From positions 1,024,001 to 1,088,000 of the forward strand of contig OZ242311.1 of the NCBI GenBank assembly GCA_965207885.1: DNA of 64,000 nucleotides, in the 5' to 3' direction. Source of the stretch: Candidatus Latescibacterota bacterium (GTDB lineage Bacteria > Latescibacterota > UBA2968). The translations under genes and the position numbers were made by a program. Positions 3,046 through 30,255 of the stretch are shown here, one piece after another. The notes under the pieces were generated by a model that did no database searches, was not told the DNA's origin, and saw only the letters and a program-made list of their open reading frames with translations. Position 1 is the first letter of the stretch; each line of letters starts with the position of its first letter.

Positions 3046-3612
3046 ATGTATAAACGATTGTTTGCAGGTCTGATGTTGATGGCTATGGGGTGGACACCCG
3101 CCTGGGCGACGACTGTGAAGACGTTTGTTTTTGAAGAAATGTGCGAAACTGCGCAGACTATTGTATATGTCAAATGTCTCGCGCGCGATAATGCAGTTTT
3201 TGCCGATCGAGAGGGTATTTTTACCCAAACGCGGTTTAAAATTATGGAGGTGGTCAAAGGGCAGACTGATTCAGAAATGGTGCTGACTTTGCCCGGCGGT
3301 GAGTGGGAAGGACAGCGCATGTATGTGCCTGGTATGCCGCAGTTTGTGGTGGGGCAAGAGACTGTGCTGTTTCTTTCGAAGCGCGACGATTTTGGTTCTC
3401 CATGGCCGATGGGATTGGGACAGGGATGTTATGCCGTGCAGGTGGGCGAAGGTGGAAATCGCCAGGTCAGACTCAGACATGTGCCTTTGCCTCCGGAGGT
3501 GCGCAGCAAACCCGCACAAGCGCAAACATCGCACATGGAGTTGGGCGATTTTTTGACTGCGGTTCGAGAAGTGCTCAATTTGAACCAGCAAGAGGCACCT
3601 GCTGAACAGTAA
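3046..3612 (+). CDS. Hypothetical exported protein
   Basis: SD GGAG, N-terminal signal peptide ending AWA, GMPQF..G...VLFL motif. Confidence 0.65.
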   Translation: MYKRLFAGLMLMAMGWTPAWATTVKTFVFEEMCETAQTIVYVKCLARDNAVFADREGIFTQTRFKIMEVVKGQTDSEMVLTLPGGEWEGQRMYVPGMPQFVVGQETVLFLSKRDDFGSPWPMGLGQGCYAVQVGEGGNRQVRLRHVPLPPEVRSKPAQAQTSHMELGDFLTAVREVLNLNQQEAPAEQ

Positions 3613-3620
3613 GGGGTAAT

Positions 3621-4709: not shown

Positions 4710-4728
4710 GTCAAATTTTCCCGTTGAC

Positions 4729-5742: not shown

Positions 5743-6601
5743 TCCCACGTATGGCGAGTATTTGCGCGATGTGTTTTTGCGAGCAAATAAGCGGGCTTGG
5801 TGTTATTTTCCGCCCTTTCTCTGTGCTTTTAGTCTCGCTCCCAATCGGATTGTTTGCGTCGATGAAATTGCGGGGAGTACGTGTCTGTTCGTACAGCGTC
5901 CAGAAGGTGTTGACTTGCTGCTGCCACCTGTTCCCTGTGATGCTGATACGCTGAAGAGGGTTGTCGATAAACTTGCCTCTCATCAGGGTGGTCGTCTGCC
6001 GAGAATTTTGTGGTTAGATGCCTGTGATGCCAAATATGTAGATACCGACAAGTTTGCACTTCGCGATAAAGACGCAGAATACGTTTACGATCCATCGCAG
6101 ATTGCTGTGGCTACAGGAAGGCGTTTCAGGGATGTGCGCAAGCGCGTGCGCCGTTTTGAGCGCGCCCACGCGTTCCGTTTTCGCGCTTTGACTGCGTGGG
6201 ATGTGCCGGATTGTTTCGCGCTGTTGAAGCATTGGCGTCGGCGCCAGGGGCGTCGGCATCCCTTTTTGCTGGACTGGGGATATACGCGAGTAGCGCTCGA
6301 TCAGTTTCATTTTTGGTCAGAAGATGTGTTGTGGGGGTGGTGTGTGGAGGTTGCGGGACGGATTGAGGCTTTTGCCCTGAGCGGAAAGATGCAGCCCGAT
6401 TTGGCGCATTTTTTTGTTGCGAAGACCAATCCCGATTTGCCCGATTTGTCGTATTTTTTGCGATGGCGGGTCTATGGCGCGTTGTCTGCTTATCGCCGCG
6501 TAAATGACGCTGGAGATCTGGGTTTGTCGGGTTTGCGCCAGTTCAAGCAGAAATTTCGACCTGTGGATCAGTGGCGGGTTTTTTCAGCAGAACCCCTGTG
6601 A
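5723..6601 (+). CDS. DUF2156 / phosphatidylglycerol lysyltransferase-like GNAT-fold protein
   Basis: EYVY, G..F...RK and VNDAGDLGLSGLRQFKQKFRP motifs; overlaps the upstream gene. Confidence 0.7.
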   Translation: MIGHPIDPTYGEYLRDVFLRANKRAWCYFPPFLCAFSLAPNRIVCVDEIAGSTCLFVQRPEGVDLLLPPVPCDADTLKRVVDKLASHQGGRLPRILWLDACDAKYVDTDKFALRDKDAEYVYDPSQIAVATGRRFRDVRKRVRRFERAHAFRFRALTAWDVPDCFALLKHWRRRQGRRHPFLLDWGYTRVALDQFHFWSEDVLWGWCVEVAGRIEAFALSGKMQPDLAHFFVAKTNPDLPDLSYFLRWRVYGALSAYRRVNDAGDLGLSGLRQFKQKFRPVDQWRVFSAEPL

Positions 6602-6609
6602 GGCATATT

Positions 6610-6897
6610 ATGAACAGGTTGCTAATCGTTGCAATTTTTAGTCTATGGATTTGTGGATGCGAGACCACATCGCCCTCTTCTTATGTTTATTACGAGGTGG
6701 TGCATTCTCCAGAGCAAGTCGCGGTGGGAGATTCTCTGTTGATAGAGACCAGAGAGGGCGCGACATTTCAAGGGATTTTGTTGCGGGCAGATAAAGAAGA
6801 GATTGTGGTGACGACAGAGACGCAGGGTAAGGTCCGGGTACTCTGGCGCGAGGTCTCCAAGGTGAAGCGCGTTATAAGGGCAAGGGCGCAGGAGTGA
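6610..6897 (+). CDS. Small lipoprotein
   Basis: Signal peptide with lipobox-like ICGC. Confidence 0.55.
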   Translation: MNRLLIVAIFSLWICGCETTSPSSYVYYEVVHSPEQVAVGDSLLIETREGATFQGILLRADKEEIVVTTETQGKVRVLWREVSKVKRVIRARAQE

Positions 6898-7687
6898 GAA
6901 GACGATCTACTTCGTTGGACCAGGTGTTGGCAATGCAAAGGCCGTATTCTTTTTTTCCTCCTGTGGCAAGGGGACCTGTGAGGTGGGTATAGCGTCGGGT
7001 CGCTTTGAGGTTTTTGGGGATATAGTCGGTGTTCAAAAAGTGCAGTGCAAGGCCCGCGCGTTCTCTGTGTGTGGTATTTGCATGTGTGCGATGTGCAATG
7101 CCAAAGTTGAAGAAGACGGCACCTCCGGCTGGCAATTCAATGGGGATGGCTCTTTCTTCGGGTACTGTGCAGTGGATGTGGTGGTCGCTGTTGGGGTCCC
7201 GGTCGTGGGCGTAAATTTCGCGGTGGCTGTCGGGTACGATGTGCAGTGTGCCGTTGGCGATGTTGGCATCGTGAAGGGCAACCCACATGCCAACGCCTTT
7301 GGCGGGATCGCTGATTTTGAAATACGCGTTGTCCTGGTGCCAGTCCGTGCCAATGCCCTGTTTGCCAGGTTTGAGAAAGATCTGGTCGAGGTGGAATACA
7401 AAGGGAGAGCCGATGAGTTGCCCGACAAGCGCGAGGACTTTGGGGTGAAAGTGCAGGGCGCGATAAAAAGGGCTTTTGGGCGTGATGGGACAGATTTGCA
7501 GGTTGATTTGCGTTTGTGAATGGGTCTGCCCATCCCCGTCGGTGGCGACATTGCGGAGGAGGCCCTCGCGTTTGAAGCGGTCGAGTTCAGCGCGCATGGC
7601 GCGTATTTCCCGGCGGGTGAACATGTCGGGGACTATGGCGTAACCCGAGGTGCGAAAGCGGTCGAGTTGTTCTTGTGTTAGAGACAT
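6872..7687 (-). CDS. Phytanoyl-CoA dioxygenase family (Fe/2OG) protein
   Basis: WHQDNAY (HxD), WVALHDA...NGTL and a distal His (AHRT). Confidence 0.9.
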   Translation of the reverse strand: MSLTQEQLDRFRTSGYAIVPDMFTRREIRAMRAELDRFKREGLLRNVATDGDGQTHSQTQINLQICPITPKSPFYRALHFHPKVLALVGQLIGSPFVFHLDQIFLKPGKQGIGTDWHQDNAYFKISDPAKGVGMWVALHDANIANGTLHIVPDSHREIYAHDRDPNSDHHIHCTVPEERAIPIELPAGGAVFFNFGIAHRTHANTTHRERAGLALHFLNTDYIPKNLKATRRYTHLTGPLATGGKKEYGLCIANTWSNEVDRLLTPAPLPL

Positions 7688-7695
7688 TTTCCCTC

Positions 7696-8700
<1,005 letters not shown>

Positions 8701-8726
8701 GATGTCTGGTTCCATTTGCGAGGCGG

Positions 8727-9713
8727 TCAGTTTTCCAGCCAACAACTGACGCGATGGCCCGATTCGATTTCGAGGAGTTGTGGTTCTTCTCGGCACTTAT
8801 CCATTGCATGCGGGCACCGCGGGGCAAAGGCGCAGCCTTGTGGGATTTCAAAAGGATCGGGGATTGTGCCTTCGATGGGTACCAGGCGGCGTTTTTGTCC
8901 CACTTGTGGAATGGAGTTCAGCAGGCCCCTGGTGTAGGGATGGCGCGGATCTTTGAAGACGGTGCGCGTGTCGGAGTATTCGACGATTTTACCCAGGTAC
9001 ATCACCGCGACGTAGTCGGCCATGCTGGCGACGACGCCGAGGTCGTGGGTGATGAGCATGATCGCCATGCCGATGTCGGATTGGAGATGGCGCATCAGGT
9101 CCAGGATTTGGGCTTGGACCGTGACATCGAGGGCTGTCGTGGGTTCGTCGGCGATGAGCAAGCTGGGATTGCACGAGAGGGCCATTGCGATCATGGCGCG
9201 CTGACGCATGCCGCCTGAGAGTTCATGGGGATACGCATCGACCTGACGGTCGGGACGCGGTAGGCGCACTTTGTTGAGGGCATCGATAGCGCGTTCACGA
9301 GCTTCTTTTTTGTCTGCGTTCTGATGTAGCATGATCGCCTCGGCAATTTGGTTGCCCACGGTGTGTACAGGGCTGAGAGAGGTCATAGGCTCCTGAAAGA
9401 TCATGGCGATGTCATTCCCGCGAATGTCGCGCATCTGCGTGCCTTTGGGATTGAGTTGTGTCAGGTCAATGGGATCGCTTTCGGGATCTTTGTGAAAGAG
9501 GATCTGCCCGTGTTCGATTTTGCCCGGGGGACTCGGGATGAGGCGCATGGTTGAAAAGGCGGTGATGCTTTTTCCACAGCCCGATTCGCCGACCAGGCCG
9601 AGGGTTTTTTCGGGCGCTATGGATAGGGATACGCCATCGACCGCGCGCACGACGCCATCGTCGGTGTGGAAATAGGTTTTGAGGTCGCGTATGTCTAAGA
9701 GCGGTTGGGTCAT
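8727..9713 (-). CDS. Oligopeptide ABC transporter ATP-binding protein (OppD-like)
   Basis: [16 protein letters not shown] and DEPTTALD motifs. Confidence 0.92.
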
Positions 9714-18235: not shown

Positions 18236-18613
18236 AAAAAAGCCGCTGACAAGACCAGGACAAGTCAAGTGTCAGCGGCAGCAAATATCTCAAGCTGATA
18301 ACTTGAGAAGGTTAAACAAAGGTAGCGACCTGAAGCGCGATTGTCAATGTGAATATAATGTTCAATACAAAAAGAGAAAATTGAACGATGTGTTCACTTC
18401 TCAATTCGATAGTCAGCTTGAACTTTATTCTACAATACTCTCTATATGGAATAAAAGTAACGCCTTAAAAAAATTATTATTTGAACAATTCATATTGGCA
18501 TACATGTTGCATGTATCTGTTTAAGCAGTAAAAAATCTGTTTTGAATCGTGTGGAAAGTCAGGCTCTAAGCCTCAAATATTTTAGACAGCGTTTTATCGC
18601 CCCGGAGAAAAAT

Positions 18614-19405
18614 ATGAACAAACAGAAAATTCTGATTATAGATCACGACCCCGGCATTCTATCGACCCTTGTCGGATTTCTGAGCGATGAACCTTATGAC
18701 GTTTGCACGGCGAGCAATGGGAAAGAAGGGCTTGAAATTTTGAGACGAGAGAAGATCGATCTCGCCATCGCTGAAATGTATATGGGAGGTCTTGATGGGG
18801 TCGCGCTTTTAAAGCGCGTTGCAATAGAGAAAATTCAGACAAACGTCCTGATCATGGAAAATGTTGTGCCTCTGGAAGTAGCCGAAAAAATACTCAAGGC
18901 CGGTACTGCAGGCGTATTGGACAAACCGACCAATAAGGACAGATTTTTGGCACAGATCAAAAACTGTATCCTACTAAATGAAGTGGAATACACTGGGGCG
19001 CGGGTCTATGAAGCACCTCGTTCACTGTCCAGACCCTCCTTCGCCCGAGTGCCTGCTTCGCAAGAGGCATTGGAATCATTTTTGGAGGAGCGTTACAGAG
19101 ATCCAGACCTGAAATTTGAAGACCTTACGCGCTATTTTGGTATCTCGCTGTCGCGTGGTCACGAGCTGTTTAGAAAACATTTTGACAGGACCTTCCGTGA
19201 AAAACTGAGGGAGGTCAGAATAGCACAGGCAGAGCATTTTTTAACACACTCATCACTGTTGATATATGAAATTGCACGCCTATGTGGGTTTCGCGGATCA
19301 AATCGTTTCTCTGAGGATTTCAAGAGGATACATGGCTTTTCTCCTACCCAGTATCGTAAAAAGTTTATGCGCGGAGAAATTCAGTCGTTTTCGGAAGATG
19401 TCTGA
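18614..19405 (+). CDS. Response regulator-like protein: atypical receiver plus AraC HTH
   Basis: CheY-like N-terminus with degenerate phospho-site; C-terminal IYEIARLCGF...FSEDFKRIHGFSPTQYRK; SD GGAG at 18604. Confidence 0.88.
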   Translation: MNKQKILIIDHDPGILSTLVGFLSDEPYDVCTASNGKEGLEILRREKIDLAIAEMYMGGLDGVALLKRVAIEKIQTNVLIMENVVPLEVAEKILKAGTAGVLDKPTNKDRFLAQIKNCILLNEVEYTGARVYEAPRSLSRPSFARVPASQEALESFLEERYRDPDLKFEDLTRYFGISLSRGHELFRKHFDRTFREKLREVRIAQAEHFLTHSSLLIYEIARLCGFRGSNRFSEDFKRIHGFSPTQYRKKFMRGEIQSFSEDV

Positions 19406-19477: not shown

Positions 19478-20656
19478 ATGGCTTTAGCCACCAGACAGCC
19501 TGAATCTGATCATGAGATCAAGCTAAAGGGCTTCGAATTTATAAGATTCTTCATTCTGTCTATTATCGCATTGAGTATTCTGCTTATTGCAGGGGTTGTG
19601 ATTTTAGGCTGGGATGTCGAAATGGAAATTAGTGTTGAGGCGTCGGGGCACGTTGAACCCGTTGAGAAAAAATTTGTCAAATCAGAGACCGTGGGGACGA
19701 TAGAGAAGGTGCTTATTCACGCGGGTCAGCAGGTCGCAAAAGGGGATACGCTTTTTGTTCTCGGTGCTTCAGAGTGGAGAAAAGAGGCCGCGAAAATAGA
19801 AAAAGAGATTGCAATTAATCAACGACAGAGAGAGGAACTCAGAGAGACATTATTTTTTGATCGGCAAAGGATAGAATCAAGTCTTGACCAGGCGCGGCTC
19901 GAACACGAAGCAAGCGGTCTTAGGCTTGAACAGATTTTACAGGAGCAACAATTGTATCAAAAATATCTGAAAGAGAGAAAGGAACGGACACGACCTCTTG
20001 AGACGCTTTTACCTGTAAAACTTCAGGAGAACAATCTCAACCGTGTTCAGCAACGCATGACCTATCTGAAAATTGAGCGTGATGCTCTGGCTGTTAGAGA
20101 GAAAGAAATCCAAACTTTGAAACTGGTGGGGGATAAGCTCATGCAAGAACGCGATTGGATTCAGGAACAGATACGGAAAACCACCATCACTTCCCCAATC
20201 GCAGGTATTATTCTGACATCAGATATTGAGACGATTGAGGGCGATAGGGTTTCGGTTGGTAGTCCGGTATTGGAATTGGCGCAGTTAAATGAATGGCAGG
20301 CGAGGGTTTTTGTGCAAGAGGTGGATATTTCAAAAATTGAAATGGGTCAAGATGTCAAATTGTACATCCATGCGTTTCCGCATATGAGTTACAAAATTTT
20401 TAGTGGTAGGGTGAGTGAATTGCCCAGCCGGAATCAAGTCGTGCCTCCCAATGCAACGGCTCTGACATTATACCCGGTGAAGATATTGATCGATGAACCT
20501 TTTGTTCGCAGTGGTGATCAGGTCTATCCGGTGGCGTATGGCATGCGGTTAGATGCGAAGATCATTATTGAAAGAAATTTTTTATGGGAAATTGCGTGGA
20601 AAAAGATAAAAGAGGCTTTTAGTATCGTTGACAAGAAAAATCCGTTGGTTTTTTAA
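19478..20656 (+). CDS. HlyD family membrane fusion protein
   Basis: N-terminal TM, lipoyl-like half motifs (GQQVAKGDTL; ITSPIAG), coiled coil and GMRLDAKI. Confidence 0.9.
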   Translation: MALATRQPESDHEIKLKGFEFIRFFILSIIALSILLIAGVVILGWDVEMEISVEASGHVEPVEKKFVKSETVGTIEKVLIHAGQQVAKGDTLFVLGASEWRKEAAKIEKEIAINQRQREELRETLFFDRQRIESSLDQARLEHEASGLRLEQILQEQQLYQKYLKERKERTRPLETLLPVKLQENNLNRVQQRMTYLKIERDALAVREKEIQTLKLVGDKLMQERDWIQEQIRKTTITSPIAGIILTSDIETIEGDRVSVGSPVLELAQLNEWQARVFVQEVDISKIEMGQDVKLYIHAFPHMSYKIFSGRVSELPSRNQVVPPNATALTLYPVKILIDEPFVRSGDQVYPVAYGMRLDAKIIIERNFLWEIAWKKIKEAFSIVDKKNPLVF

Positions 20657-20687
20657 TTGATGACAGGCAAACCGGAGATCGGGAATC

Positions 20688-22403
20688 TTGACGCAAATAT
20701 TCACTATTGTTAAGATGCTGCGGCCTTATTGGCGGTATATCATTCAGTCGCTTTGTGTTGGCATTTTGTTTATGTTGTTTCAGATACCAGGACCTTATTT
20801 CACGAAAATAATGATCGATGACGTATATCCGCATAAAGATTTCTCTCTGTTGAATTTTGTTCTGTTGTTGGGCATGCTCATGTCATTGGGTGTAGGCGGG
20901 ATGAGGTTTATCAGTGGGTATTTTGGTCAGTGTGTTGGCATCCGGATGGGGTATGATTTTCAAGCGCGTTTTTACAAACATATACAAACGTTGGATTTTG
21001 GTTTTTTTGATAGCCGGGAGACGGGTGAAATACTATCTCGATTTCGAGATATGCGAAGTTCAATTGCCAGTGTTATTAGTTTGATTAACACGCTGATTAT
21101 CAATTCGCTCCAACTCCTAATTTTTCCGCCCATTCTGTTCTTTATCAATTGGAAACTGGCACTGATTAGCCTTACAGTTTTGCCCTTTGACACGCTGTTG
21201 GTTATGATTTCAAGACGGTTTATCCGCAAATATACAAGGGAAGTTGCAGAACGCTCAGCAGAGTTATCGGCGAAAAATTACGAGTCCATCTCTTCAATTA
21301 GAACAGTGCAGTCTTTGGGGTTGGAAGCTTCATTTTTTCAGAAGCTACAGGGATTGTTCATCGGTGTGGCAAATTTGAGAATGAAAGTGTCGCTTTTTTC
21401 GGGCACAACGGGATATGCCAGCACCATTATCAAGACAGGCGGAACACTTGCCTACGGCTTCTACGGATGGCACGAGGTGTTATCTGACAATTTGACGTTG
21501 GGAAGTTATATGGCTTTTACGGGCTATGTGGGGTATTTGTATGGACCCATAAAAAGTCTCATTGGCCTGTTGCGGCGCATCGAATCCACGCTGGTTCATA
21601 CAGATCGCTTTTTTGAAGTCTATAATATTACGCCTGACATACGCGATGAACCGCAGTTGGCTGAACTCAACGGGGTTCGTGGAAGGATAGAGTTTCGAGA
21701 TGTCAATTTTGCATATCAGCCCGAAAGGGTGGTGTTGAACGAGATCAATCTCCAGATTGACGCCGATCAAACAGTCGCCATTGTTGGAAGAAGTGGGTCG
21801 GGCAAATCTACCCTGGCAAAGCTCATTCCGAGGTTCTACGATCCAGTGGATGGGCAGGTCTTGATCGATGGGGTCGATATCAGGCAATACCGTCTCAATT
21901 CTCTGCGACAAAATATCGGCTTTGTGATGCAAGGCAGTGCGCTGTTTCAGGGGAGTATTTTGGAGAATCTGACGTTTAACAAACCCATTTCCATGATTGA
22001 TGTCGAAGCCGCAACCCGGGCAGCCTATATCCACGATTTTGTCACGAAGCTCCCCAACGGCTATCACACTGTCATCGGTGAGCAGGGGGCGCAACTTTCA
22101 GAGGGGCAAAAGCAGAGGGTCGCACTTGCACGAGTGCTACTACAGAACACACCCATCTTGATTTTGGATGAACCCACTGCGGCACTGGATAACGAGTCTG
22201 AGTTTTATATTCAAGAAGCGATGAAGGAAATTTGCAAACAAAGAACAGTGATCGTCATTGCCCATCGTCTGTCAACCATCCGGCGTGCAGACAAAATCGT
22301 GGTCATCGACCAGGGAAGAATTGCTGAGGAAGGCAGCCACGAGGTTTTGATGCTGCAAGATGGTGTTTATTCCATGCTCCAGGAGAGAGCAGCGAGGATT
22401 TGA
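20688..22403 (+). CDS. ABC exporter, fused permease/ATPase, no C39 peptidase domain
   Basis: TM domain with TGEILSRF, Walker A GRSGSGKST, signature variant LSEGQKQR, LILDEPT and AHRLST. Confidence 0.92.
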   Translation: MTQIFTIVKMLRPYWRYIIQSLCVGILFMLFQIPGPYFTKIMIDDVYPHKDFSLLNFVLLLGMLMSLGVGGMRFISGYFGQCVGIRMGYDFQARFYKHIQTLDFGFFDSRETGEILSRFRDMRSSIASVISLINTLIINSLQLLIFPPILFFINWKLALISLTVLPFDTLLVMISRRFIRKYTREVAERSAELSAKNYESISSIRTVQSLGLEASFFQKLQGLFIGVANLRMKVSLFSGTTGYASTIIKTGGTLAYGFYGWHEVLSDNLTLGSYMAFTGYVGYLYGPIKSLIGLLRRIESTLVHTDRFFEVYNITPDIRDEPQLAELNGVRGRIEFRDVNFAYQPERVVLNEINLQIDADQTVAIVGRSGSGKSTLAKLIPRFYDPVDGQVLIDGVDIRQYRLNSLRQNIGFVMQGSALFQGSILENLTFNKPISMIDVEAATRAAYIHDFVTKLPNGYHTVIGEQGAQLSEGQKQRVALARVLLQNTPILILDEPTAALDNESEFYIQEAMKEICKQRTVIVIAHRLSTIRRADKIVVIDQGRIAEEGSHEVLMLQDGVYSMLQERAARI

Positions 22404-22545
22404 TATGTTCAAAGCAAAGTGCCCAATTCTAAAAGCACCTCTTGACAAGGAAAGGAGGTAAATGAAAAATCACTACACGGTGCTTTGTCCATAGTGAATG
22501 GAAAACATTCACCGATTTCTAATTTTTACAGTATTGGAGGATCAC

Positions 22546-23022
22546 ATGCAAAAGCTGGTGAAAAGAAGGATGCATTACGAAACCATTATGCCCGTTGAGG
22601 CTTATGACGATGAAAAAAAGAAAGAGGATGAGAACACGGCCGATATTATTGGTGCTTCTCTTACGTTTCTGGGTATAGTAGTAACGACGTCTGGGGGTCC
22701 TGTTAGCCAAGCTGCAGGAATGCTTCTCGCTGGCGGGGGTCTCGCGACTACGGCTATCCATAATGAACAATTTACAGAGACAGCAAGAGAAGTAGCTACT
22801 GTTGAGGCAGAGACTGATTTAATAATATCTGAGGGTCTCGTAGATGCAGGCAGTGCTGGAGCCAGTGCTATAGGTGAAGGAATCTTAGCTGTAGGTGCTG
22901 CTGTCGAAGCTGTAGAAGAATTTGCCGGACATGTAGCCGAGAGAGCACCACAGGCGATGGCAGATGCGGTTACAGAAATGGTTGAGACGATAACCGACTT
23001 TGGGGACGATGGCGGAGGTTAA
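22546..23022 (+). CDS. Putative precursor/secreted toxin with a leader ending VEAY
   Basis: SD GGAGG at 22536; basic 20-aa leader MQKLVKRRMHYETIMPVEAY, then an acidic Ala/Gly-rich core with a hydrophobic hairpin; sits directly after the exporter. Confidence 0.6.
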   Translation: MQKLVKRRMHYETIMPVEAYDDEKKKEDENTADIIGASLTFLGIVVTTSGGPVSQAAGMLLAGGGLATTAIHNEQFTETAREVATVEAETDLIISEGLVDAGSAGASAIGEGILAVGAAVEAVEEFAGHVAERAPQAMADAVTEMVETITDFGDDGGG

Positions 23023-23088
23023 TTCAAATAAACCTACATTTCGTTGTAAATTAAAAATGTAGTATGGGCCAGTTTTTATGGATCATTG

Positions 23089-23126
23089 CAGGTATTGCAC
23101 TCTTGTATATTTGAGTGCAATACCTG
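23089..23126 (+). terminator. Perfect 14-bp stem-loop after the precursor gene
   Basis: CAGGTATTGCACTC / GAGTGCAATACCTG; no clear U-tract, so possibly an mRNA-stabilising or attenuating hairpin. Confidence 0.6.
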
Positions 23127-23175
23127 AATTGCTCATTCTTCCCCGAAACTTGATAGCAAGAATAAGAGAAGCTGT

Positions 23176-24087
23176 ATGCTTAAATCATTTTCAAAAATCG
23201 AGACAAAAAAAATCCTGATTTACTTTCTCTTACTTTTTTTTCTCTTAGGATGTATTCATGCTATTCTAAAAATTACAGGTAATATAAGTCCTGGGGAAAC
23301 ACCTCCTTGGGGTATATGGATCTTCATTTTTTTTATAATCTGGATGTTGTTCAACTTGCGAAGACCTGGTAAGACCTTGAGTGAATTATTAGGTACCAAT
23401 ATTACCTTTTCAAAATTGGAAGTTATGGCCATATCCATGGGGAAATTCTTGCTGGCTTTTGGATTTACAATTCTGGTTCTTCGCCCATTATTTGGTTTTG
23501 AGATAGGTTCCATGTATTTGATGCGCTACAAATTAAGTATGGGACATTTTTCATTGGACCCAATACATTTTATTAAATTGATAATTTTATCTCCAATAGC
23601 AGAGGAATTGTTCTTTAGGGGCTATTTGCTGCAAAGGCTTTCGGCCAAATGGGGATTGAAAACTGGGTTGTTCATTTCCGCCGTTATCTTTTCTGTCGTG
23701 CATCCAAATATCTTTAGTGCTTTGATTTTGGGTCTTTTGACTACGCTCATTTATGTCAAAACTCAAAATATCTTCGCTCCAATCTTGTGTCATAGTCTTA
23801 GTAATGCCTTCGTTGTTTTTAGATTTTTTCTCATATACAGTTTCGCCAGGTTGGAATCTTTACTCCAGATCAATGTCTCTCTAACCACCTTTGGTCTGAT
23901 CTTGCTCATTCCTGGCTTCTTGATCACAGGTTATTTTATTTTTAAACTCTGGTCTGTATTAAACGATCCGCCTGACGGTGCATCTGTCTCCGCCCCTTCT
24001 TGCGCTACCGCAGACAAGTATGATGTGTCGGCAGACAAGGATACTACAGACAGGCTTGCTCAGCAGACGAGTCAGGACGGTAATTAA
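23176..24087 (+). CDS. CPBP/Abi (CAAX-type) intramembrane metalloprotease, possible immunity factor
   Basis: EELFFRG, FSVVH and HSLSN motifs. Confidence 0.88.
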   Translation: MLKSFSKIETKKILIYFLLLFFLLGCIHAILKITGNISPGETPPWGIWIFIFFIIWMLFNLRRPGKTLSELLGTNITFSKLEVMAISMGKFLLAFGFTILVLRPLFGFEIGSMYLMRYKLSMGHFSLDPIHFIKLIILSPIAEELFFRGYLLQRLSAKWGLKTGLFISAVIFSVVHPNIFSALILGLLTTLIYVKTQNIFAPILCHSLSNAFVVFRFFLIYSFARLESLLQINVSLTTFGLILLIPGFLITGYFIFKLWSVLNDPPDGASVSAPSCATADKYDVSADKDTTDRLAQQTSQDGN

Positions 24088-24258
24088 ACCAAGTTCTTAA
24101 AGAAGGCAGGAAATCTTCTCATCCAGGGTGGAGGACCTGAAAAATGCCGATAGATTTAAAAAAATTTTATACCTGCCCGAATGTGGACATCCTGTGGGGT
24201 GGTGGCGCAAATTCCGTACGGAAGTAAAGGATCCGCCGATACCCCTAACCCATTTGAA

Positions 24259-25260
24259 ATGAAAACGATGCCTAAAAATAAAGTCCTATCTCATATTGGT
24301 GCAGCCATAAATCATGTTTATGGGCCTGCAAGCATAGACTATAAGCCTACAGAACTGGTCGTGTTGTGTCTGGTTCGCGATGGGCAAGCATACATGCGAA
24401 CATTTATTGAACATTATTTGGGACTTGGAATCCGGCATATCATTTTTTTGGATAATGGTTCAAAAGACAGGACGATTGCCATTGCCAGGCAGTATCCCCA
24501 AATATCCATCTTTTCTACCACGCTGTCGTATAAAGAATATAAATATCAAATGAAGGAATATTTGATTCGCCGGTTCGGGCAGAACAGATGGTCACTCTAC
24601 GTGGATATTGATGAACTGTTCGACTTTCCATCATCGGATAAAATCCGCATAAGAGACCTTTTGGAATATTTAAACGTTCATTCATTTACCGCAGTCGTGG
24701 CGCAAATGCTGGATATGTTTTCGGAAGATACGTTAGCAAATTTGCCCGATGCAGAATCGACTCCCCTAAAGGATGCTTGCAATTATTACGATTTGTCGGA
24801 TATCGCTAAAGAAGCGTATTCAGATTCTGAATTTTGTCCTCATAATTTTGTTTCCAACCAAAGGATTGCCCATCATAAAGGTGGCATAAGACAGACGCTT
24901 TTTGGTGCAGATTGTTCTTTAACGAAACATCCGCTTATTTTTTTAGATGACGAGATCAAACCTATGTGTGAGTCTTCTCATAAGATCGAAAATGGATATA
25001 TCGCAGATATTACAACTGTGCTCTACCATTTCAAATTTATCGATGGTTTTGAAAACCTCACTCAAAGGGCGGTGCATGAAGAGAATTACTGGATGGATTC
25101 ACGAGAATACAAAAGATATTATGAAGTCATGAAACGCGACCCCAATCTCGTGATAAAACAGAAAACTTCGAGAAAGCTAAACAGCATTGACGAATTGGTG
25201 GAGTGCGGATTTCTTGTTGTTTCGAAAAATTTTCAGAATTGGGGTGTCATAGGCAGTTGA
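24259..25260 (+). CDS. Glycosyltransferase family 2-like protein
   Basis: VRDG..Y...FIEHY..LG, DNGSKD, YVDIDE (DxD) and LYHFKF motifs; start uncertain (24181/24259/24268). Confidence 0.82.
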   Translation: MKTMPKNKVLSHIGAAINHVYGPASIDYKPTELVVLCLVRDGQAYMRTFIEHYLGLGIRHIIFLDNGSKDRTIAIARQYPQISIFSTTLSYKEYKYQMKEYLIRRFGQNRWSLYVDIDELFDFPSSDKIRIRDLLEYLNVHSFTAVVAQMLDMFSEDTLANLPDAESTPLKDACNYYDLSDIAKEAYSDSEFCPHNFVSNQRIAHHKGGIRQTLFGADCSLTKHPLIFLDDEIKPMCESSHKIENGYIADITTVLYHFKFIDGFENLTQRAVHEENYWMDSREYKRYYEVMKRDPNLVIKQKTSRKLNSIDELVECGFLVVSKNFQNWGVIGS

Positions 25261-25288
25261 TATACGGAGATTTGATTGCGAGTCTAAA

Positions 25289-26320
25289 ATGAAAAAAGAG
25301 TTGCCTATAGGAATGCCCCGGATTACTTGCGCGCTTCATCATGCGTATCCGCTGTCCATATTGGCAATCTCGGATGATTATCTCCCCTGGTTTTATAGCC
25401 ATTATATCCAGATGGAATACGAAACAGACCATAAATATAGATTCAACTTTTATCGCTACCCCCACTATCTTGTGTCTGTATCTCCTTGGTTGCAAATTCA
25501 GATGATGCATCATAATGTCGTTCGCAGGGCGTATAAAAACGCGGTAGATTTCGTTAAAGACGCCATCAATGAAAATTTATATATCCAAATGGATGTCGAT
25601 GAGTTTTATATCCCTCACAAAGAGTTGTACAATCGTCACCATTACACGCGCGAATTGCTTATTTACGGATATGACTCACTAAATCAAACCCTTAAGACGC
25701 TGGGCTTTAACGCAGAGGGGAATTATACGTCGAACAATGTTTCTTTTCGTCAGTTTGAGGAAGCTCATATAAATTCTATCTCAAACAATGAGCAGGATTG
25801 CAGAGTATTTATGTTCAGATATATAGATAACGCACAATATGAATTCGACCTCAATGCCGTTCTTGAACAACTGCAAGATTATCTCTATGCAGTCAACACG
25901 TCGAAAAGATTCAGGAGTTTAGCACCTGTCAAAAACTATGCTTATGGTCTTGCGACATATAGGGTTATTCAGAATTATCTTTTGTTTAAGGCTGACAATG
26001 CAAGTGATATTAACCGTATAACTTTTCACACGCTTTGGGAGCATAAAAAATGCATGACAGAACGTCTTAATTTTTTGGAACAACACGGATTTTTAAGTTC
26101 ATCTTTTGGGTTGCAGATGGCTTATGAAAGCGTAGAAAAAAAGACACAGCAATTGCGCGCCATGTCTTTTAAGTATGTCCTGACAAAAGATACTGCGATT
26201 GTAGAAAGGATGGTTGAATTGATCAACATAATCGCGTCGGAAGAGAAGCAGATATTAGTGCGTGTTTGTGCTGCTCTGAAGAGCGGGATGGAGGGGATTA
26301 ATAATTCCAACACGGTTTAG
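25289..26320 (+). CDS. BtrH-like protein, paralog 1 (putative ACP-dependent acyltransferase/peptidase fold)
   Basis: PWFYSHYIQ, VDEFYIP..., LIYGYD, YGLATY and TLWEHKKCM motifs shared with 29219-30255. Confidence 0.55.
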   Translation: MKKELPIGMPRITCALHHAYPLSILAISDDYLPWFYSHYIQMEYETDHKYRFNFYRYPHYLVSVSPWLQIQMMHHNVVRRAYKNAVDFVKDAINENLYIQMDVDEFYIPHKELYNRHHYTRELLIYGYDSLNQTLKTLGFNAEGNYTSNNVSFRQFEEAHINSISNNEQDCRVFMFRYIDNAQYEFDLNAVLEQLQDYLYAVNTSKRFRSLAPVKNYAYGLATYRVIQNYLLFKADNASDINRITFHTLWEHKKCMTERLNFLEQHGFLSSSFGLQMAYESVEKKTQQLRAMSFKYVLTKDTAIVERMVELINIIASEEKQILVRVCAALKSGMEGINNSNTV

Positions 26321-26377
26321 TGTGTACCCAACTCGATTACTGCGTAACGTCGTAAATCAAGAGAGGAGACATACAGT

Positions 26378-26836
26378 ATGAAAACACGAATCATCATATG
26401 GGTGGCCTCACTGGTCTTAACAGGGGCACTTAATGTAGTCGCAGAAGAAATGCCTGACCCGGCTTCTGTATCCAAGATAGCGGATATCAAACGCCTGATG
26501 GAAATAACCGATGTACGCAATCTTGGCAGGAAAATTATGAATCGGCTGGTTCTCACCATGAGGAAAGGTCGTTCAGCAGTTCCTTGGGATGATTTCATGG
26601 CTGAATTTGACGTCAATGAGTTTATTGAAATGATTATACCCATTTACGACAAGCATTTCACCCATGAGGAAATCAAGCAACTGATCGCATTTTATGAGTC
26701 TCCTATAGGGAAAAAGATGATTAAAGTTCAACCTCAACTTATGATGGACAGCATGGCAGCGGGCGAAGAGTGGGGAAAAAAGTTGATCAAGAGAGTCAAG
26801 GAAAAACTCCACGAAGAAGGATATGAAAAAAACTAA
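26378..26836 (+). CDS. DUF2059 domain exported protein
   Basis: YDKHFTHEEIKQLIAFYESPIGKK motif; signal peptide. Confidence 0.8.
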   Translation: MKTRIIIWVASLVLTGALNVVAEEMPDPASVSKIADIKRLMEITDVRNLGRKIMNRLVLTMRKGRSAVPWDDFMAEFDVNEFIEMIIPIYDKHFTHEEIKQLIAFYESPIGKKMIKVQPQLMMDSMAAGEEWGKKLIKRVKEKLHEEGYEKN

Positions 26837-27018
26837 TCTATGCGTCACACCATTTTTGATTGCGCTGAAAAATTTATTTGGAAAAATGTGCGGTAATTGA
26901 GCGACAGTTATTCGTCTATCGGGTGGTTCGCACAAGGCGGTGATCATCGCTCTATTTACCTATCAAAACGCGGATAGCTGAGTTGTATGGACTTGAACCG
27001 GATATTTAATGGCTTGTT

Positions 27019-28950
27019 ATGTATATCATACAGAAAAAATACAAATGCAATTTCCATGATCTAAGCGGAGAAGGTGTCAAGGTTGCAATTATCGATAGCG
27101 GGATTGATCGTTCTCATGAAGTGTTGCAGCGTGTGACCGCAGGAATCTGTTTTGAGTTTTCTGCGGGCAATGTCCTTACGTCTGAAGACTATCGAGACAC
27201 ATCTGGTCATGGCACTGCGGTTGCGAGTATTATCAAAAAGAAGGCTCCGGGTACAGAGCTATATGCTATAAAAATCTTCGATCAATCTCTGATTGTCGAA
27301 CAAAAAATTCTCCTTGAATCCATTCGCTGGGCAATTGATCAGAACGTCGATATCATCAATCTGAGCCTTGGGACAACAGACATCCAGGTCAAGAATGCTC
27401 TGTTGGATATATGTAAGGTGGCAACGAAAAAGGGTATCGCAATCGTCGCTGCCGAACACAATTCAGGGCAGGAGAGTTATCCCGCCTATTTCTCCAATGT
27501 GATCGGTGTGAAGGCGGGGGAGATAAAAGGGCGTTACAATTATCTGTTTTGTGCAGGAGAGTCTATTGAATGTATCGCACCTGGAACAACGCAGCGCGTT
27601 CTCTGGACAGGTGGGCGAGAGCATATTGTTGAAGGCAGTAGCTTTGCTGCGCCTCACCTCACGGGCATTATCGCATTAATCAAACAGGCCTTTCCCAAAG
27701 CCAATCTGAATGAGATCAGACACATATTAGAGGTGAATGCCAGTCGAGAAGTGCAGCAACAAATCCCTTCAGGTCGCAAGATTCGGGTGCATACTCCCCA
27801 AACGTCCCAATCCTTTGATCCAAACAAGATTAAAAGAGCAGCTATTTATCCCTATAACAAGAAAATGCATAGTCTAATGCGTTTCAGGGAGTTGTTAAAT
27901 TTTGAAATTGTGGGTATCGCTGATCCCATTGCCAAAGGTTATGTTGGGAAAGATGCTGGTGAAGCGATTGGCATACCGCCCGTTGGCATACGGGTTCAGC
28001 CGCGATTTCAAGAGATATTGAAAGAGGCTGATACGCTTATTCTGGGCTATGTAGATGAACTGAGTCGAATTACTAAAAAGAATGTCCTGCGCGAGAGTAT
28101 TGAGAAGGCCATTGATGCCAACTTAAATGTGTTCAGCTTTCTGTCCGTTTATCAGAAGGATTTAAGAGATTTGATTGATAAGGCTCGTAAAAAGAACCTC
28201 TGGATTTATTCGCCTGACGTTCATCAAAATGACCTGCTCAAAGCACTTCAGCCCCACAATAATCCAGCCGTTGATGTGCCAGTTATCGGTGTTTTTGGCA
28301 CGAGTGCTCAACAGGGTAAGTTCACTGTTCAACTCGCCTTGAGGTCAAAGCTGATAAAAGAGGGATATAAGGTTGGGCAAATCGGTACCGAACACCATTC
28401 TCAGTTATTTGGAATGGATGTGGCATTTCCAACGGGCTACGCCTCTCCACTGCAATTTCCAATACAGCTTCACGCGCCTTATCTGGATTTCAAAATGCGC
28501 GAGATCTGTGCGAATAAGAAACCGGATTTAATGCTTGTCGGGGCACAGTCGGGAAGTATCCCCTATGATGTCCATGAGCCGGGAAATCACACGCTTTCAA
28601 CACTTGTTTTTATGCTGGGTACAAAACCCGATGCCAATATATTGGTCGTGAATAGCGTTGATGATGGCGAGTATATACGCGATACCATGAACACGCTCAA
28701 GGCAATTACCAAAGGCCCCGTGTTATGCCTCGCAATGAGTGATAAAGAAAAACACATCCGAGCAGCTTATGGCCGAACACTGATTAGTCCGCGTCAAATG
28801 TCAAAAGAAGAAATCAAAGAGAAATTGGCGTATTTGGAGGATAGATTTGAGATTCCAGCTATAGAGATTGTGTCAGAGGAGGGGCAACAGAGGATGGTTG
28901 ACCTCATTATAAGCTACTTTGCAGATGAGCAAGAAGGAGGGGATGTATGA
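27019..28950 (+). CDS. S8 subtilase fused to a DUF1611/TIGR04066-like P-loop domain
   Basis: Triad IIDSG, GHGT, GSSFAAP; C-terminal half has PVIGVFGTSAQQGKF..QL and GYKVGQIGTE; no signal peptide. Confidence 0.8.
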   Translation: MYIIQKKYKCNFHDLSGEGVKVAIIDSGIDRSHEVLQRVTAGICFEFSAGNVLTSEDYRDTSGHGTAVASIIKKKAPGTELYAIKIFDQSLIVEQKILLESIRWAIDQNVDIINLSLGTTDIQVKNALLDICKVATKKGIAIVAAEHNSGQESYPAYFSNVIGVKAGEIKGRYNYLFCAGESIECIAPGTTQRVLWTGGREHIVEGSSFAAPHLTGIIALIKQAFPKANLNEIRHILEVNASREVQQQIPSGRKIRVHTPQTSQSFDPNKIKRAAIYPYNKKMHSLMRFRELLNFEIVGIADPIAKGYVGKDAGEAIGIPPVGIRVQPRFQEILKEADTLILGYVDELSRITKKNVLRESIEKAIDANLNVFSFLSVYQKDLRDLIDKARKKNLWIYSPDVHQNDLLKALQPHNNPAVDVPVIGVFGTSAQQGKFTVQLALRSKLIKEGYKVGQIGTEHHSQLFGMDVAFPTGYASPLQFPIQLHAPYLDFKMREICANKKPDLMLVGAQSGSIPYDVHEPGNHTLSTLVFMLGTKPDANILVVNSVDDGEYIRDTMNTLKAITKGPVLCLAMSDKEKHIRAAYGRTLISPRQMSKEEIKEKLAYLEDRFEIPAIEIVSEEGQQRMVDLIISYFADEQEGGDV

Positions 28951-29216
28951 ATGATGATCTAAAGATACAGATAAAACAGACGATTGTGCGTGCGTTAAAC
29001 CTTGAAATTGATCCCGAAGAGATAGGAGATTCAGATGTGCTTTTTGGTGGAGAAATGGGTCTCAATTCAATGGCAATGGTTGAACTCGTTGTGGGCATAG
29101 AAGATGAATTTGACCTTGAAATCTCAGATGAAGATCTGAGTGCCGAAGTTTTTAAAAGTGTGCAGACGATTGAAGATTATATCCGGTCTGTGCGTGAGTG
29201 CGTTTTGACTGCCTGA
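28947..29216 (+). CDS. Acyl carrier protein
   Basis: Acidic 89 aa, GLNSMAMVEL (Ppant Ser), IEDEFDLEISDE; ATGA overlap with the protease gene. Confidence 0.88.
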   Translation: MNDDLKIQIKQTIVRALNLEIDPEEIGDSDVLFGGEMGLNSMAMVELVVGIEDEFDLEISDEDLSAEVFKSVQTIEDYIRSVRECVLTA

Positions 29217-29218
29217 AA

Positions 29219-30255
29219 ATGAAAAAATCGCTTCCCATCCAGTTATCCCCACCCATCCACGGCTATCCCCGCCATGGCTACCGACTTTCGATTATGTCGC
29301 TTCACGATGCGTATATTCCCTGGTTCTTCTGCAATTACATACAGCTATTCGCCGTTGATCTGTTAAATGAGAGCAAACACAACATCCGATTCAACTTCTA
29401 TTTTCAGGGTCCATACTCCCCGCCGTGGCTGTCTATCTACACCGTTCCACGGCGATCAATTGCTAAAGTCTATCATCAGATTGTGCCGTTTATTCGAGAT
29501 CAGATTGATGAGGGTTTTTATGTCCAGTTGATGGCCGATGAGTATTTCCTGCCGATGAGTATTTCCTGCCGCATACGCCATTTTATGAGAAGATACATCA
29601 TCCACATGCTATTATGGCATTTGGATACGATGACGATACAGAAACGCTTGAGACTCTGGGATTCAATAGAGCGCGGGACTACTCTGTTTCAAGGGTTGGA
29701 TATTCAGATTTTGAAGCGGCGTTTCGCTGGGTTGATCCCGAGAAACGCAGATCGTACCTGGTGACTCTTTTTGAGTATAATGAGGACGGTATCTATGAGT
29801 TTGACATTGATGCTGTCATTGACCAGTTGCGAGCCTACATCCATTCAGAGAATCCGTCTATTCACTATCGGATGTTGCGTAAGCCGGTTGAAGGCGTTTT
29901 TGGGATGGCGACGTATAAGCTCTTGCGAGATTATTTTACGCATTTGTTTGTTCAGCCTCGGTTGTGGGATCGGCGGCATCTGTTCACGCTTTGGGAGCAC
30001 AAGCGTTGTATGTTAGACAGGCTTGCTTATCTGGAAGAGCGCGGGTATTTGCGTCCGTCAGACCAGTTTCATCAGGCGTACAAGGAGGTCGAGCATAAGG
30101 CGCATCAGATTCATCTGATGATGCTTAAATTGCGAGCGTTGGTGGAGGTCAAGAGAGCGTGGGATGTGGATCGTATTTTGAAGATTATCACCTTGTTAGA
30201 TGATATTTCTCAAAGGGAAGAGCGCATTCTGAAGGATGTTTTGAAGGCGCTTTGA
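29219..30255 (+). pseudogene. BtrH-like protein, paralog 2, frameshifted by a 17-bp tandem duplication
   Basis: GCCGATGAGTATTTCCT duplicated at 29534-29567; removing one copy joins the two ORFs into 339 aa colinear with paralog 1. Confidence 0.85.

Follow-up and report, generated by a model that had tools for sequence, protein, structure and literature searches.

A conserved leader on hypervariable acidic cargo proteins beside an S8-DUF1611 module in uncultured Latescibacterota

Introduction

Leader-guided maturation is an organising principle of ribosomal natural products, in which short cores are normally accompanied by a recognisable tailoring enzyme. In the CLI_3235/CcpM system, reportedly first described by Haft and Basu in 2011, precursors of family TIGR04065, with Cys-rich cores of 30-45 aa, are found with the radical S-adenosylmethionine (radical-SAM) maturase CcpM (TIGR04068) and with TIGR04066, TIGR04069, S8 peptidase and ATP-binding cassette (ABC) proteins. 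Here we analyse a 158-aa open reading frame (ORF), at positions 22546-23022 on the + strand of a 64,000-nucleotide stretch of DNA from Candidatus Latescibacterota bacterium (contig OZ242311.1, positions 1,024,001 to 1,088,000 of the forward strand; hereafter the window), whose product joins a leader resembling those of CLI_3235 precursors to a core, or cargo, of a very different kind. The same locus encodes an HlyD-family adaptor, an ABC exporter, an S8 (subtilisin-type) protease fused to a DUF1611/TIGR04066-like P-loop domain (hereafter S8-DUF1611), an acyl carrier protein (ACP) and two BtrH-like proteins, unkA and unkB (Table 1).

Several known pathways offer points of comparison for such a set of genes. 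During maturation of quinohemoprotein amine dehydrogenase, the QhpC leader is cut by the cytoplasmic subtilisin-like protease QhpE before export through an ABC transporter. Class II microcins and bacteriocins are made as leader-bearing precursors with a Gly-rich hydrophobic region, are exported by ABC transporters with membrane-fusion proteins, and are accompanied by small membrane proteins or Abi (CPBP) proteins that confer immunity. In butirosin biosynthesis, BtrH carries out an ACP-dependent acyl transfer, and N-acylated ribosomal lipopeptides exist.

Among the closest known systems are the CLI_3235 clusters of Bacillota, such as that of Clostridium pasteurianum, whose plasmid pCLOPA01 carries a RefSeq-annotated CLI_3235 precursor, MKLLGKKHVKVMETIEAY followed by ACSG... 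(that is, with a leader ending in ...TIEAY), next to a CcpM radical-SAM enzyme, TIGR04066, a small ACP-like protein and an S8 peptidase. The SacP23 precursor of Paenibacillus polymyxa belongs to the same group and reads MRKLVKR...DTIEAF followed by GCGC... (PMC10731318, Table 2); where that paper treats the Paenibacillus cluster, it lists the same partner proteins and reports that the N-terminus of SacP23 is blocked to Edman degradation (PMC10731318). A literature search on TIGR04066, CLI_3235, TIGR04065, TIGR04069, DUF1611, BtrH and ribosomally made peptides with post-translational modifications (RiPPs) of Latescibacter did not find the module and precursors analysed here described.

Results

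A conserved leader precedes a variable, acidic core

The ATG of the precursor ORF lies 5 nt downstream of GGAGG, and its core runs from DDEKKKEDE through the Gly/Ala-rich hydrophobic stretch IIGASLTFLGIVVTTSGGPVSQAAGMLLAGGGLATTAI to an acidic, helix-prone tail that ends in FGDDGGG. A first-pass annotation, made from the letters of the window alone, had read the ORF in just this way, as a leader, DDEKKKEDE, a hydrophobic stretch and an acidic tail with 0 Cys, and the sequence confirms that reading. The precursor looks intact, with the length and layout of a homologue, P0001, that is 73-75% identical to it.

A word-based search returned 47 homologues of 124-157 aa, giving 48 aligned members when the window ORF is included. 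Mean pairwise identity among them is 0.92 in the leader and 0.33 in the core. Thirteen of the 20 leader positions are invariant (M1, Q2, K3, L4, V5, K6, Y11, I14, P16, V17, E18, A19 and Y20) and four others are conserved in at least 90% of members, while past residue 20 the only invariant position is E23; this split between leader and core is far beyond chance. As the word-based search is biased towards proteins that share the leader, the core alone was also submitted to a word-free phmmer search of 1.84 billion representatives. Three proteins were returned, two of which (P0001 and P0002) are real relatives that both carry the same leader; the search thus yielded no relative that had kept the core and lost the leader, the outcome that the first-pass annotation had named as speaking against it. 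The third, P0060, is a 2140-aa repeat protein that matched on composition and was rejected as a relative.

The cores have in common a layout and not a sequence: they begin acidic, form a hydrophobic hairpin around residues 29-70 and continue in acidic helices, with net charges between -16 and -24. In the window cargo, the acidic N-terminal stretch contains the invariant E23 and is followed by the Gly/Ala-rich hydrophobic hairpin at residues ~32-70 and by acidic helices. An H-[DNHT]-E motif is present in 38 of the 48 cores, and the C-terminal ends are xYGE in 23, ...[VL]H in 13 and Gly-rich in 8. The earlier statement that Cys is lacking applies to the window copy and to 27 of the 48 members, and fails for the other 21, which have one to three Cys; no Cys is conserved.

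Searching with a family profile placed the family in 9 of 168 Latescibacterota species genomes, all of one genus (the window genome and 8 of 20 other species), and near-identical pieces occur in the public run X6, which is labelled as a sponge metagenome. One member, P0047, bears the NCBI label of a Gemmatimonadetes/Gemmatimonadota metagenome-assembled genome, in conflict with the GTDB genome search and its single Latescibacterota genus; mis-binning or gene transfer could account for the label.

The whole precursor matched no Pfam family at E<=0.1 and gave a single, chance-level NCBIfam match (13 bits against a cut-off of 457). With the core alone, the best ESM Atlas score was 0.84, which is chance level, and an Rfam scan of positions 22300-23200 likewise gave chance-level matches only. 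AlphaFold2, run on the 48-row alignment, produced an all-helical model of low confidence (predicted local distance difference test score, pLDDT, 53; predicted template modelling score, pTM, 0.31) that is too poor for a fold search. The term 'pore-former-like', which the first-pass annotation had applied to the core, therefore reflects composition, and membership of a known pore-former family was rejected because composition is its sole support. In the metatranscriptome run X12, one 228-nt contig spans 22431-22607 of a relative; it does not show transcription and was not counted as evidence of expression.

Conservation ends at the Tyr20 codon

Six loci of sister species lie at the same chromosomal place, between flanking genes (IDH, YceI, DUF58 and ChrA) that are 88-96% identical. 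Intact proximal copies of HlyD, ABC, S8-DUF1611, ACP and unkB are 85-96% identical (loci L003, L007 and L008, and the precursor-adjoining module of L006). Precursor matches at the sister loci span anything from residues 1-25 to residues 1-140, at 34-84% identity, and beyond the leader these precursors are only 34-46% identical. The window genome itself contains a second copy of the module ~100 kb away, in which HlyD and ABC are 99%, S8-DUF1611 96% and the core 40% identical; its precursor (G000:C1:1149359-1149769, equivalent to L009 10359-10769) has the same leader and is followed by two Zn-ribbon membrane genes. Some cores are mosaics, the same C-terminal half being joined to different hairpins in L007, L008 and L017.

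Across the aligned loci, DNA conservation extends from ~115 nt upstream of the ATG to the Tyr20 codon and then collapses. In four public runs, contigs break off at 22431 and at 22605-22607, exactly where this conserved block of 5' untranslated region (UTR) plus leader has its edges. Among ten unique loci, six leader codons are invariant, six show synonymous changes only and eight show residue-changing ones, with both ends of the leader, MQKL.K (M1-K6) and MPVEAY (M15-Y20), kept throughout.

Such a block could also be explained without any processing, if residues 1-20 were conserved as part of a regulatory DNA block or as a homology arm for cassette exchange, with the leader left uncleaved and the protein being a resident membrane protein. 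The upstream reach of the conservation, which takes in a promoter-like site and an inverted repeat, and the branching of contigs at both block ends are in keeping with this explanation. We nevertheless regard it as very improbable: the codons that vary only synonymously keep the residue, conservation stops at a codon boundary directly after Tyr20, and the same pattern recurs, without DNA similarity, beside S8-DUF1611 paralogues of 34-65% identity and in Bacillus.

Several of the compared loci are rearranged. In L005 (10001-10462; identical to L013), a decayed locus, protein P0046 is an in-frame fusion of the precursor's C-terminus with the last ~50 residues encoded by the CPBP gene, and all that is left of the S8 gene is a fragment joined to one of unkB. 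In L004 (10001-10180; identical to L018), which is decayed or recombined, the precursor is cut to 59 aa and has T13L in its leader, and an S8 fragment (45% identical) lies upstream, fused to the C-terminal two-thirds of the ABC gene. L006 contains at 1658-9013, upstream, a complete further system with its own leader type, cargo, CPBP protein, TPR protein, S8-DUF1611, ACP and unkB, and a DUF58 fragment and a fragment of the ABC 3' end lie between its two systems; complete systems in tandem suggest duplication and divergence of whole modules.

The leader type recurs beside S8-DUF1611 across the phylum

The TIGR04066-like half of S8-DUF1611 was detected in 87 of 168 Latescibacterota genomes and 25 of 49 genera, with up to 7 matches per genome, mostly in ORFs of ~640-660 aa that represent the fused form. 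Twenty paralogous S8-DUF1611 loci (28-65% identity) were compared using tblastn, which placed an ABC exporter near at least 18, an ACP near at least 12 and a BtrH-like gene near at least 7 of them, counts that are lower bounds because the stretches reach just ~3 kb past the S8 gene. These loci were also passed through a leader filter (a ribosome-binding site, at least two Lys/Arg in the first 10 residues, an AY ending at 15-26 and an ORF of 40-260 aa). On the gene strand the filter returned 10 matches, spread over 9 loci, and on the opposite strand 0; the background in the window genome is 43 matches in 2 x 6.23 Mb, which makes 0.038 for an equivalent stretch. The enrichment is partly circular, as the filter was written after some of the loci had been seen. 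By eye, three further loci have similar leaders (...CIEAY, ...AIEAC and ...PVEPY).

Sixteen leaders align as M-x-x-L-x-K-...-Y-...-V-x-A-Y. The window ORF shows this pattern, with M-x-x-L-x-K, a Tyr near position 11 and V-x-A-Y, and has S8-DUF1611 4 kb downstream on the same strand; the '...AY' grouping itself was defined in this analysis, partly after seeing the data, and is not curated. A hidden Markov model (HMM) of the leader was built from 15 leaders with the window's family left out. Among the 84,453 ORFs of the window genome, it ranked the window ORF 1st (14.7 bits, E 0.16) and its paralogue 3rd, and among 663 ORFs of three plasmid loci it ranked two Bacillus precursors 1st and 2nd; here the ranks alone are striking, the E-values being weak (0.16, 0.89).

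In the sister species G088 and G090, S8-DUF1611 is 93-94% identical to that of the window (88-94% for S8-DUF1611, ACP and unkB overall) and stands with a different leader, MVKLKKKRPMSYKFTGKIACAY followed by DQEEE... (ending ...CAY), and an unrelated, soluble, acidic cargo. In the further system of L006, the leader is MQLCKKPVHSYGRYKQAVQLY followed by MPGSS..., and it stands with a cargo of its own, with a CPBP protein and with an S8-DUF1611 of 50% identity. The first-pass proposal of a conserved leader on an unrelated, larger cargo holds and can be generalised, since a near-identical module serves another leader and cargo in G088 and G090 and paralogous modules across the phylum come with further unrelated cargos behind ...AY leaders.

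Between the alternative precursor and S8-DUF1611 of G088 and G090 (L023 5695-7755; L024, reverse strand) lies a gene for a 686-aa secreted TPR protein with a Peptidase_C39_2 domain, which could be a second, extracytoplasmic processing enzyme. At L025, L027, L028 and L029 (~4900-6200), the filter found no ...AY-leader ORF, and the genes upstream encode a membrane protein resembling thioredoxin and another, multi-pass one of ~235 aa, so that this sub-group may have a different substrate.

The leader and its partners resemble those of CLI_3235 and Bacillus systems

A tblastn search of plasmids with the TIGR04066-like half gave eight records, among them C. pasteurianum pCLOPA01. Another, the B. 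mycoides plasmid p479 (NZ_CP036025.1), encodes an ABC protein, an ACP, two 44-aa precursors, an S8-DUF1611 fusion, a DUF692 protein and a BtrH-like protein. The precursors read MKK[AT]LKKPTKVGKEVEETKVTLY followed by MGELGCG..., the S8-DUF1611 fusion is 32% identical to that of the window over its full length (E 3e-89), and the BtrH-like protein is a homologue of unkA and unkB (E 4e-44). The fused S8-DUF1611, the Ser-bearing ACP, the BtrH-like protein and the ABC exporter are thus shared with the window, whereas the cargo of p479 is a 21-aa Gly/Cys peptide beside DUF692 and that of the window is large, Cys-free and without a DUF692 enzyme. The p479 locus (L020 10092-11656), in which the module is joined to a member of the multinuclear iron oxidase family (DUF692) and to two Gly/Cys precursors with identical cores, is a combination that our literature search did not find described.

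The window system resembles CLI_3235/CcpM in having a leader with a basic N-terminus that ends in ...EA[YF] before the core, and in co-encoding a TIGR04066-like domain, an S8 protease, an ACP-type protein and an ABC exporter. It differs in its core, which has 138 aa, 0 Cys and a very acidic composition where TIGR04065 precursors have a short Cys-rich one, in the lack of a CcpM radical-SAM maturase (TIGR04068) among the 10 window cluster proteins scanned, in the fusion of its S8 and TIGR04066-like parts, in the retained Ser of its ACP and in the presence of a BtrH-like gene. Relative to the Clostridium leader, that of the window has an extra MPV between TI and EAY. The first-pass description of the leader as CLI_3235-like is therefore apt as to resemblance, given the C. 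pasteurianum and SacP23 leaders and the partner homologues in the cluster, but does not extend to membership of TIGR04065 (see Discussion).

The module combines a putative leader protease with an ACP and BtrH-like proteins

The S8 half of S8-DUF1611 matches the model of QhpE-like leader proteases (NF049966) with 139 bits and E 1e-40, below the cut-off of 165. Residues 272-635 match positions 1-360 of the 361 of TIGR04066 (147.2 bits, E 6e-43; cut-off 200), and on this sequence evidence the half appears clearly homologous to TIGR04066 without being an equivalog. The triad D26, H64 and S208 and the P-loop G427-T436 are invariant in six sequences, and the protein has, by eye, no N-terminal hydrophobic or signal-peptide-like sequence. 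A PDB sequence search with the DUF1611-like half returned nothing at E<=0.01. A predicted complex of S8-DUF1611 with precursor residues 1-45 scored 0.39 against 0.00 for the best control, with contact agreement between runs of at least 27% and partner pLDDT of at least 32. This supports binding weakly: of 80 solved complexes, 58 attained the mark applied, as did 2 of 110 mismatched pairs, and scores up to 0.60 account for just 7 of the 80 solved complexes, yet for both of the passing mismatches. The proposed order of events, a cytoplasmic S8 cut of the leader and then ABC export, has the same logic as the QhpE system; the window differs from it in the sub-threshold model score, in having neither a Qhp subunit nor a QhpD radical-SAM enzyme, and in a cargo that is not an enzyme subunit.

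The ACP keeps the Ser of the phosphopantetheine site (GLNSM), and its best NCBIfam matches are true ACPs (55 bits); against TIGR04069 it scores 21.9 bits where the cut-off is 70. Intact unkB genes, encoding 339-346 aa, are present in L006, L007, L008 and L009, and ESM Atlas links unkB at 0.98 to clusters in which 17-26% of members have BtrH_N. A word-based homologue search with unkB found 3 close relatives only, and an AlphaFold2 model of intact unkB (8 rows) was unusable (pLDDT 46.7, and below 50 in the N-terminal domain). For unkA, there was no Pfam match at E<=0.1, and the Bacillus homologue matches at E 4e-44. An ACP gene directly 5' of a BtrH_N-like gene recalls butirosin biosynthesis, and the cargo's new N-terminus would suit a transfer to an amine; in contrast to butirosin, the BtrH_N match is sub-threshold, the cluster has no fatty-acid or polyketide genes, and the acceptor would be a protein. 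The ACP Ser and a BtrH-like gene occur together in Latescibacterota (GLNSM) and in B. mycoides (IDSL, read from the alignment). In two Clostridium loci, the ACP-related proteins lack this Ser and a BtrH-like gene is absent; with two lineages per side, this co-occurrence is no more than suggestive.

As to what might be modified, the unrelated cargos share only the new N-terminus as an acceptor, which fits a BtrH-like transfer of an ACP-borne group to that site, where acylation may take place. The blocked N-terminus of SacP23 would, by analogy, fit N-terminal modification in this system family. The first-pass annotation had also offered the KKK cluster as an acylation site, by analogy with RTX toxins. 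This idea had to be given up, as KKK is found in only 2 of the 48 cores and 24 have no Lys at all, so that RTX-like Lys acylation cannot be the modification of the family; neither a conserved internal Lys acceptor nor, in the 10 proteins scanned, an HlyC-family acyltransferase was found.

Pfam and NCBIfam scans of these 10 cluster proteins (19478-30252) gave no radical-SAM match, and none to DUF692, cyclodehydratase or HlyC-type families. This finding bears on the idea that a small RiPP is hidden in the large precursor, where a short part, around E23 or at the C-terminal end, would be modified or excised and the rest discarded as scaffold or follower. In its favour, E23 is the sole invariant core residue, the C-terminal ends are discrete and recurrent (...YGE, ...VLH/PVH and ...GGG), the core is modular, with one C-terminal half on different hairpins (L007, L008 and L017), and a second cut could be made by the CPBP proteases or, in another system, by the secreted TPR-C39-like protein. 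Yet the C-terminal ends differ from member to member without any single short core being conserved, and the module conserves no modifying enzyme other than ACP and the BtrH-like protein, radical-SAM, DUF692 and cyclodehydratase enzymes all being absent from the 10 proteins; we therefore consider a hidden RiPP rather improbable.

The cargo shares traits with antagonism proteins

Traits that fit antagonism are the cassette-like replacement of cargos while the flanks stay constant, the mosaic build of the cores, the hydrophobic hairpin rich in Gly, the presence of an exporter and the variable membrane proteins encoded downstream. The downstream membrane proteins are of the CPBP/Abi type in the window, L003 and L017, and elsewhere comprise one to three Zn-ribbon proteins of ~5 types. 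The locus resembles those of class II bacteriocins and microcins in its leader, Gly-rich hydrophobic region, ABC and HlyD proteins, small membrane or CPBP neighbours and strong variation. Unlike them, it lacks a double-glycine leader (there is no GG, GA or GS at the leader end) and a C39 domain on the ABC protein, and its cargo is longer and far more acidic; moreover, the ACP/BtrH-like pair has no counterpart in class II systems, and removal of the leader would fall to a cytoplasmic S8 protease.

The same cargo might instead be an exported acidic protein that is no toxin. It could serve a sponge symbiont at the surface, in a matrix, in binding metals or in interacting with the host, and vary under pressure from phage or host recognition. 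Its very acidic net charge, the soluble, acidic cargos without a hydrophobic hairpin that follow similar leaders elsewhere, the near-identical pieces in the sponge-metagenome run X6 and the failure of the Zn-ribbon genes to track core type all fit such a factor. Against this, the layout is that of class II bacteriocin and microcin loci, as generally understood, and cassette-like replacement between close species is typical of antagonism genes, and we hold a non-toxin role to be unlikely.

Features of the window locus

The features of the locus are collected in Table 1. The response regulator gene is the first conserved gene of the locus and is syntenic in L004, L006, L007 and L008. HlyD is 91% identical in L003, L007 and L008 (whole copies), 37% in L006 and 99% in the second locus of the window genome. 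The ABC protein aligns to bacteriocin and HlyB-type exporters only from about their positions 137-153 onwards, and so is without an N-terminal C39 peptidase domain.

Table 1. Features of the precursor locus, in window coordinates.
Feature	Position	Strand	Evidence
Response regulator with AraC-type helix-turn-helix (HTH) output	18542..19405	+	Pfam Response_reg 68.6 bits, HTH_18 61.8 bits
HlyD-family membrane-fusion (adaptor) protein of exporter	19478..20656	+	TIGR01843 E 9.6e-24, Pfam HlyD_3, HlyD_D23
ABC exporter, permease and ATPase, 571 aa	20688..22403	+	ABC_membrane and ABC_tran
Remnant of Zn-ribbon membrane-protein gene	22394..22450	+	First 7 and last few codons left (DNA alignment)
Promoter-like site TTGACA, 17 nt, AAAAAT	22442..22470	+	Consensus scan, conserved 5' region
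Perfect 7-bp inverted repeat GTGAATG-gaaaa-CATTCAC, 5' UTR	22494..22512	+	Block conserved in 8 aligned loci
Leader, residues 1-20	22546..22605	+	MQKLVKRRMHYETIMPVEAY; (nearly) invariant in 48 sequences
Cargo (core), residues 21-158 and stop	22606..23022	+	Net charge -21, 0 Cys, orphan
CPBP/Rce1-like intramembrane glutamic protease (Abi family)	23176..24087	+	Pfam Rce1-like 71.1 bits
Remnant of downstream Zn-ribbon gene (...CGHPVGWWRK...)	24128..24200	+	ORF 24128-24262 compared with intact CPKCGH...CKNCGT proteins, by eye
Glycosyltransferase-2-like protein	24181..25260	+	Pfam Glyco_tranf_2_4 72.8 bits
BtrH-like paralogue unkA, 343 aa, intact	25289..26320	+	35% identical to intact unkB of L009
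DUF2059 protein, signal-peptide-like N-terminus	26378..26836	+	Pfam DUF2059 84.4 bits
S8 (subtilisin-type) protease fused to DUF1611/TIGR04066-like P-loop domain	27019..28950	+	Peptidase_S8 109 bits; DUF1611 N and C domains
ACP	28947..29216	+	PP-binding 41.4 bits; start overlaps S8 stop
BtrH-like unkB, frameshifted	29198..30255	+	DNA alignment to intact copies

A small Zn-ribbon gene lies between ABC and precursor in seven of eight aligned loci, as one copy in five of them and as two tandem copies in L008 and L009. Intact copies (L009 9939-10274 and L008 9582-9917) encode an N-terminal CxxC...CxxC zinc ribbon and two membrane helices, and five Zn-ribbon membrane proteins searched against Pfam gave generic, sub-threshold zinc-ribbon matches only. 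The promoter scan found one site where 1.5 are expected in shuffles, so that the count alone is uninformative; the TTGACA block is kept in six of the eight aligned loci and replaced by TTAATA or CTAATA in L005 and L007. The inverted repeat in the 5' UTR is possibly an operator or an RNA hairpin, to judge from its sequence.

Downstream of the precursor, the CPBP/Rce1-like protein is a candidate immunity or processing protein. CPBP genes also lie 3' of the precursors in L003, in L017 and in the second system of L006; L032, L035 and L036 gave weaker matches. The glycosyltransferase-like gene is an accessory one, present only in the window among the loci compared (no tblastn match in L003-L008), and the DUF2059 gene is present in L003 and L007 and absent from L006, L008 and L009. 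The unkB gene is broken by a 17-bp tandem duplication of GCCGATGAGTATTTCCT (29534-29550 and 29551-29567) that shifts the frame; as this is no homopolymer slip, a real mutation is likelier than a read error. Both unkA of the window and unkB of the second locus are intact.

Discussion

The ORF has a leader/cargo architecture with a sharp boundary, belongs to a conserved module and is akin to CLI_3235/TIGR04066 systems. We think it probable, on balance, that it encodes the precursor of an exported protein whose leader is cut off as a tag by S8-DUF1611 and whose cargo, possibly modified, is exported as a competition factor, and we infer the following course from cleavage site through modification and export to toxicity and immunity. 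The 20-residue N-terminus, with its basic start and ...PVEAY end, would serve as a recognition tag for S8-DUF1611, which would bind it in the cytoplasm and cut after Tyr20. Leaders of this kind end in an aromatic residue, and subtilisin-type enzymes generally accept an aromatic residue at P1. The ACP and the BtrH-like protein would then probably modify the freed cargo by attaching a group, with the new N-terminal amine as the most plausible site, and the ABC/HlyD pump would export it. Outside, the cargo may act as a bacteriocin-like, membrane-targeting competition factor, with the variable downstream membrane proteins (CPBP/Abi here, Zn-ribbon elsewhere) as its partners. The bacteriocin-like role is something we only infer, and it is the weakest part of this account.

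A number of observations weigh against the account, beginning with the cargo itself. No one-to-one pairing of core type with downstream Zn-ribbon type was found, the types being shuffled among loci, and membrane-permeabilising bacteriocins do not usually have net charges of -16 to -24. The structure models of precursor and unkB are too poor for use. The window locus is partly decayed or rearranged, with unkB frameshifted and the upstream Zn-ribbon gene deleted.

The kinship with CLI_3235 and the leader grouping have weak points as well. When the leader was scored on TIGR04065, residues 1-35 of the window precursor and of its paralogue gave no match at E<=10, while the Clostridium control (P0051, C. 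pasteurianum) passed with 29.9 bits against a cut-off of 26, and searching the whole genome with TIGR04065 gave 2 unrelated sub-threshold places only. In a local alignment, MQKLVKRRMHYETIMPVEAY and MKLLGKKHVKVMETIEAY score 28, a value reached by 41 of 5000 shuffles, which amounts to modest similarity. To these come the circularity of the leader filter and the weak E-values of the leader HMM, which moreover did not pick up the Clostridium precursor among the 663 plasmid ORFs.

The proposed modification is affected in turn. Intact unkB matches BtrH_N (PF14399) with 25.3 bits and E 1.9e-5, at model positions 81-127 only and below the gathering cut-off of 29.7; the alignment of the BtrH-like proteins contains no invariant Cys; and, the uncharacterised DUF1611 domain aside, no ACP-loading enzyme was identified.

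A bolder version of the account, which we offer as doubtful, is that S8-DUF1611, ACP and the BtrH-like protein form a general 'cut and cap' machine. Such a machine would take a short ...AY leader off any cargo in the cytoplasm and put an ACP-borne acyl or aminoacyl group onto the new N-terminus; the cargo of the window would then be a lipid-anchored hairpin toxin that inserts into membranes and is kept harmless by its acidic tail until export, with the genus exchanging cassettes between constant flanks in an arms race. If true, this would mean that exported proteins of 50-140 residues can be N-capped, and possibly lipidated, by a ribosomal route.

The window system represents a variant form of leader-guided maturation, of a kind known but uncharacterised in biochemical terms, in which a CLI_3235/TIGR04066-type leader and its partners occur with Cys-free, hypervariable proteins of 110-140 residues and without a radical-SAM or iron oxidase enzyme. 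These large Cys-free cargos make the module of leader, S8-DUF1611, ACP and BtrH-like protein separable from Cys chemistry, so that its own function becomes directly testable. As about half of the Latescibacterota genomes sampled (87 of 168) carry the TIGR04066-like half, often in several copies, and Bacillus and Clostridium plasmids have it too, solving the module would annotate a large block of unknown biology. Further gains could be a tag-and-process system that is portable and, from uncultured bacteria associated with sponges, a new family of competition proteins.

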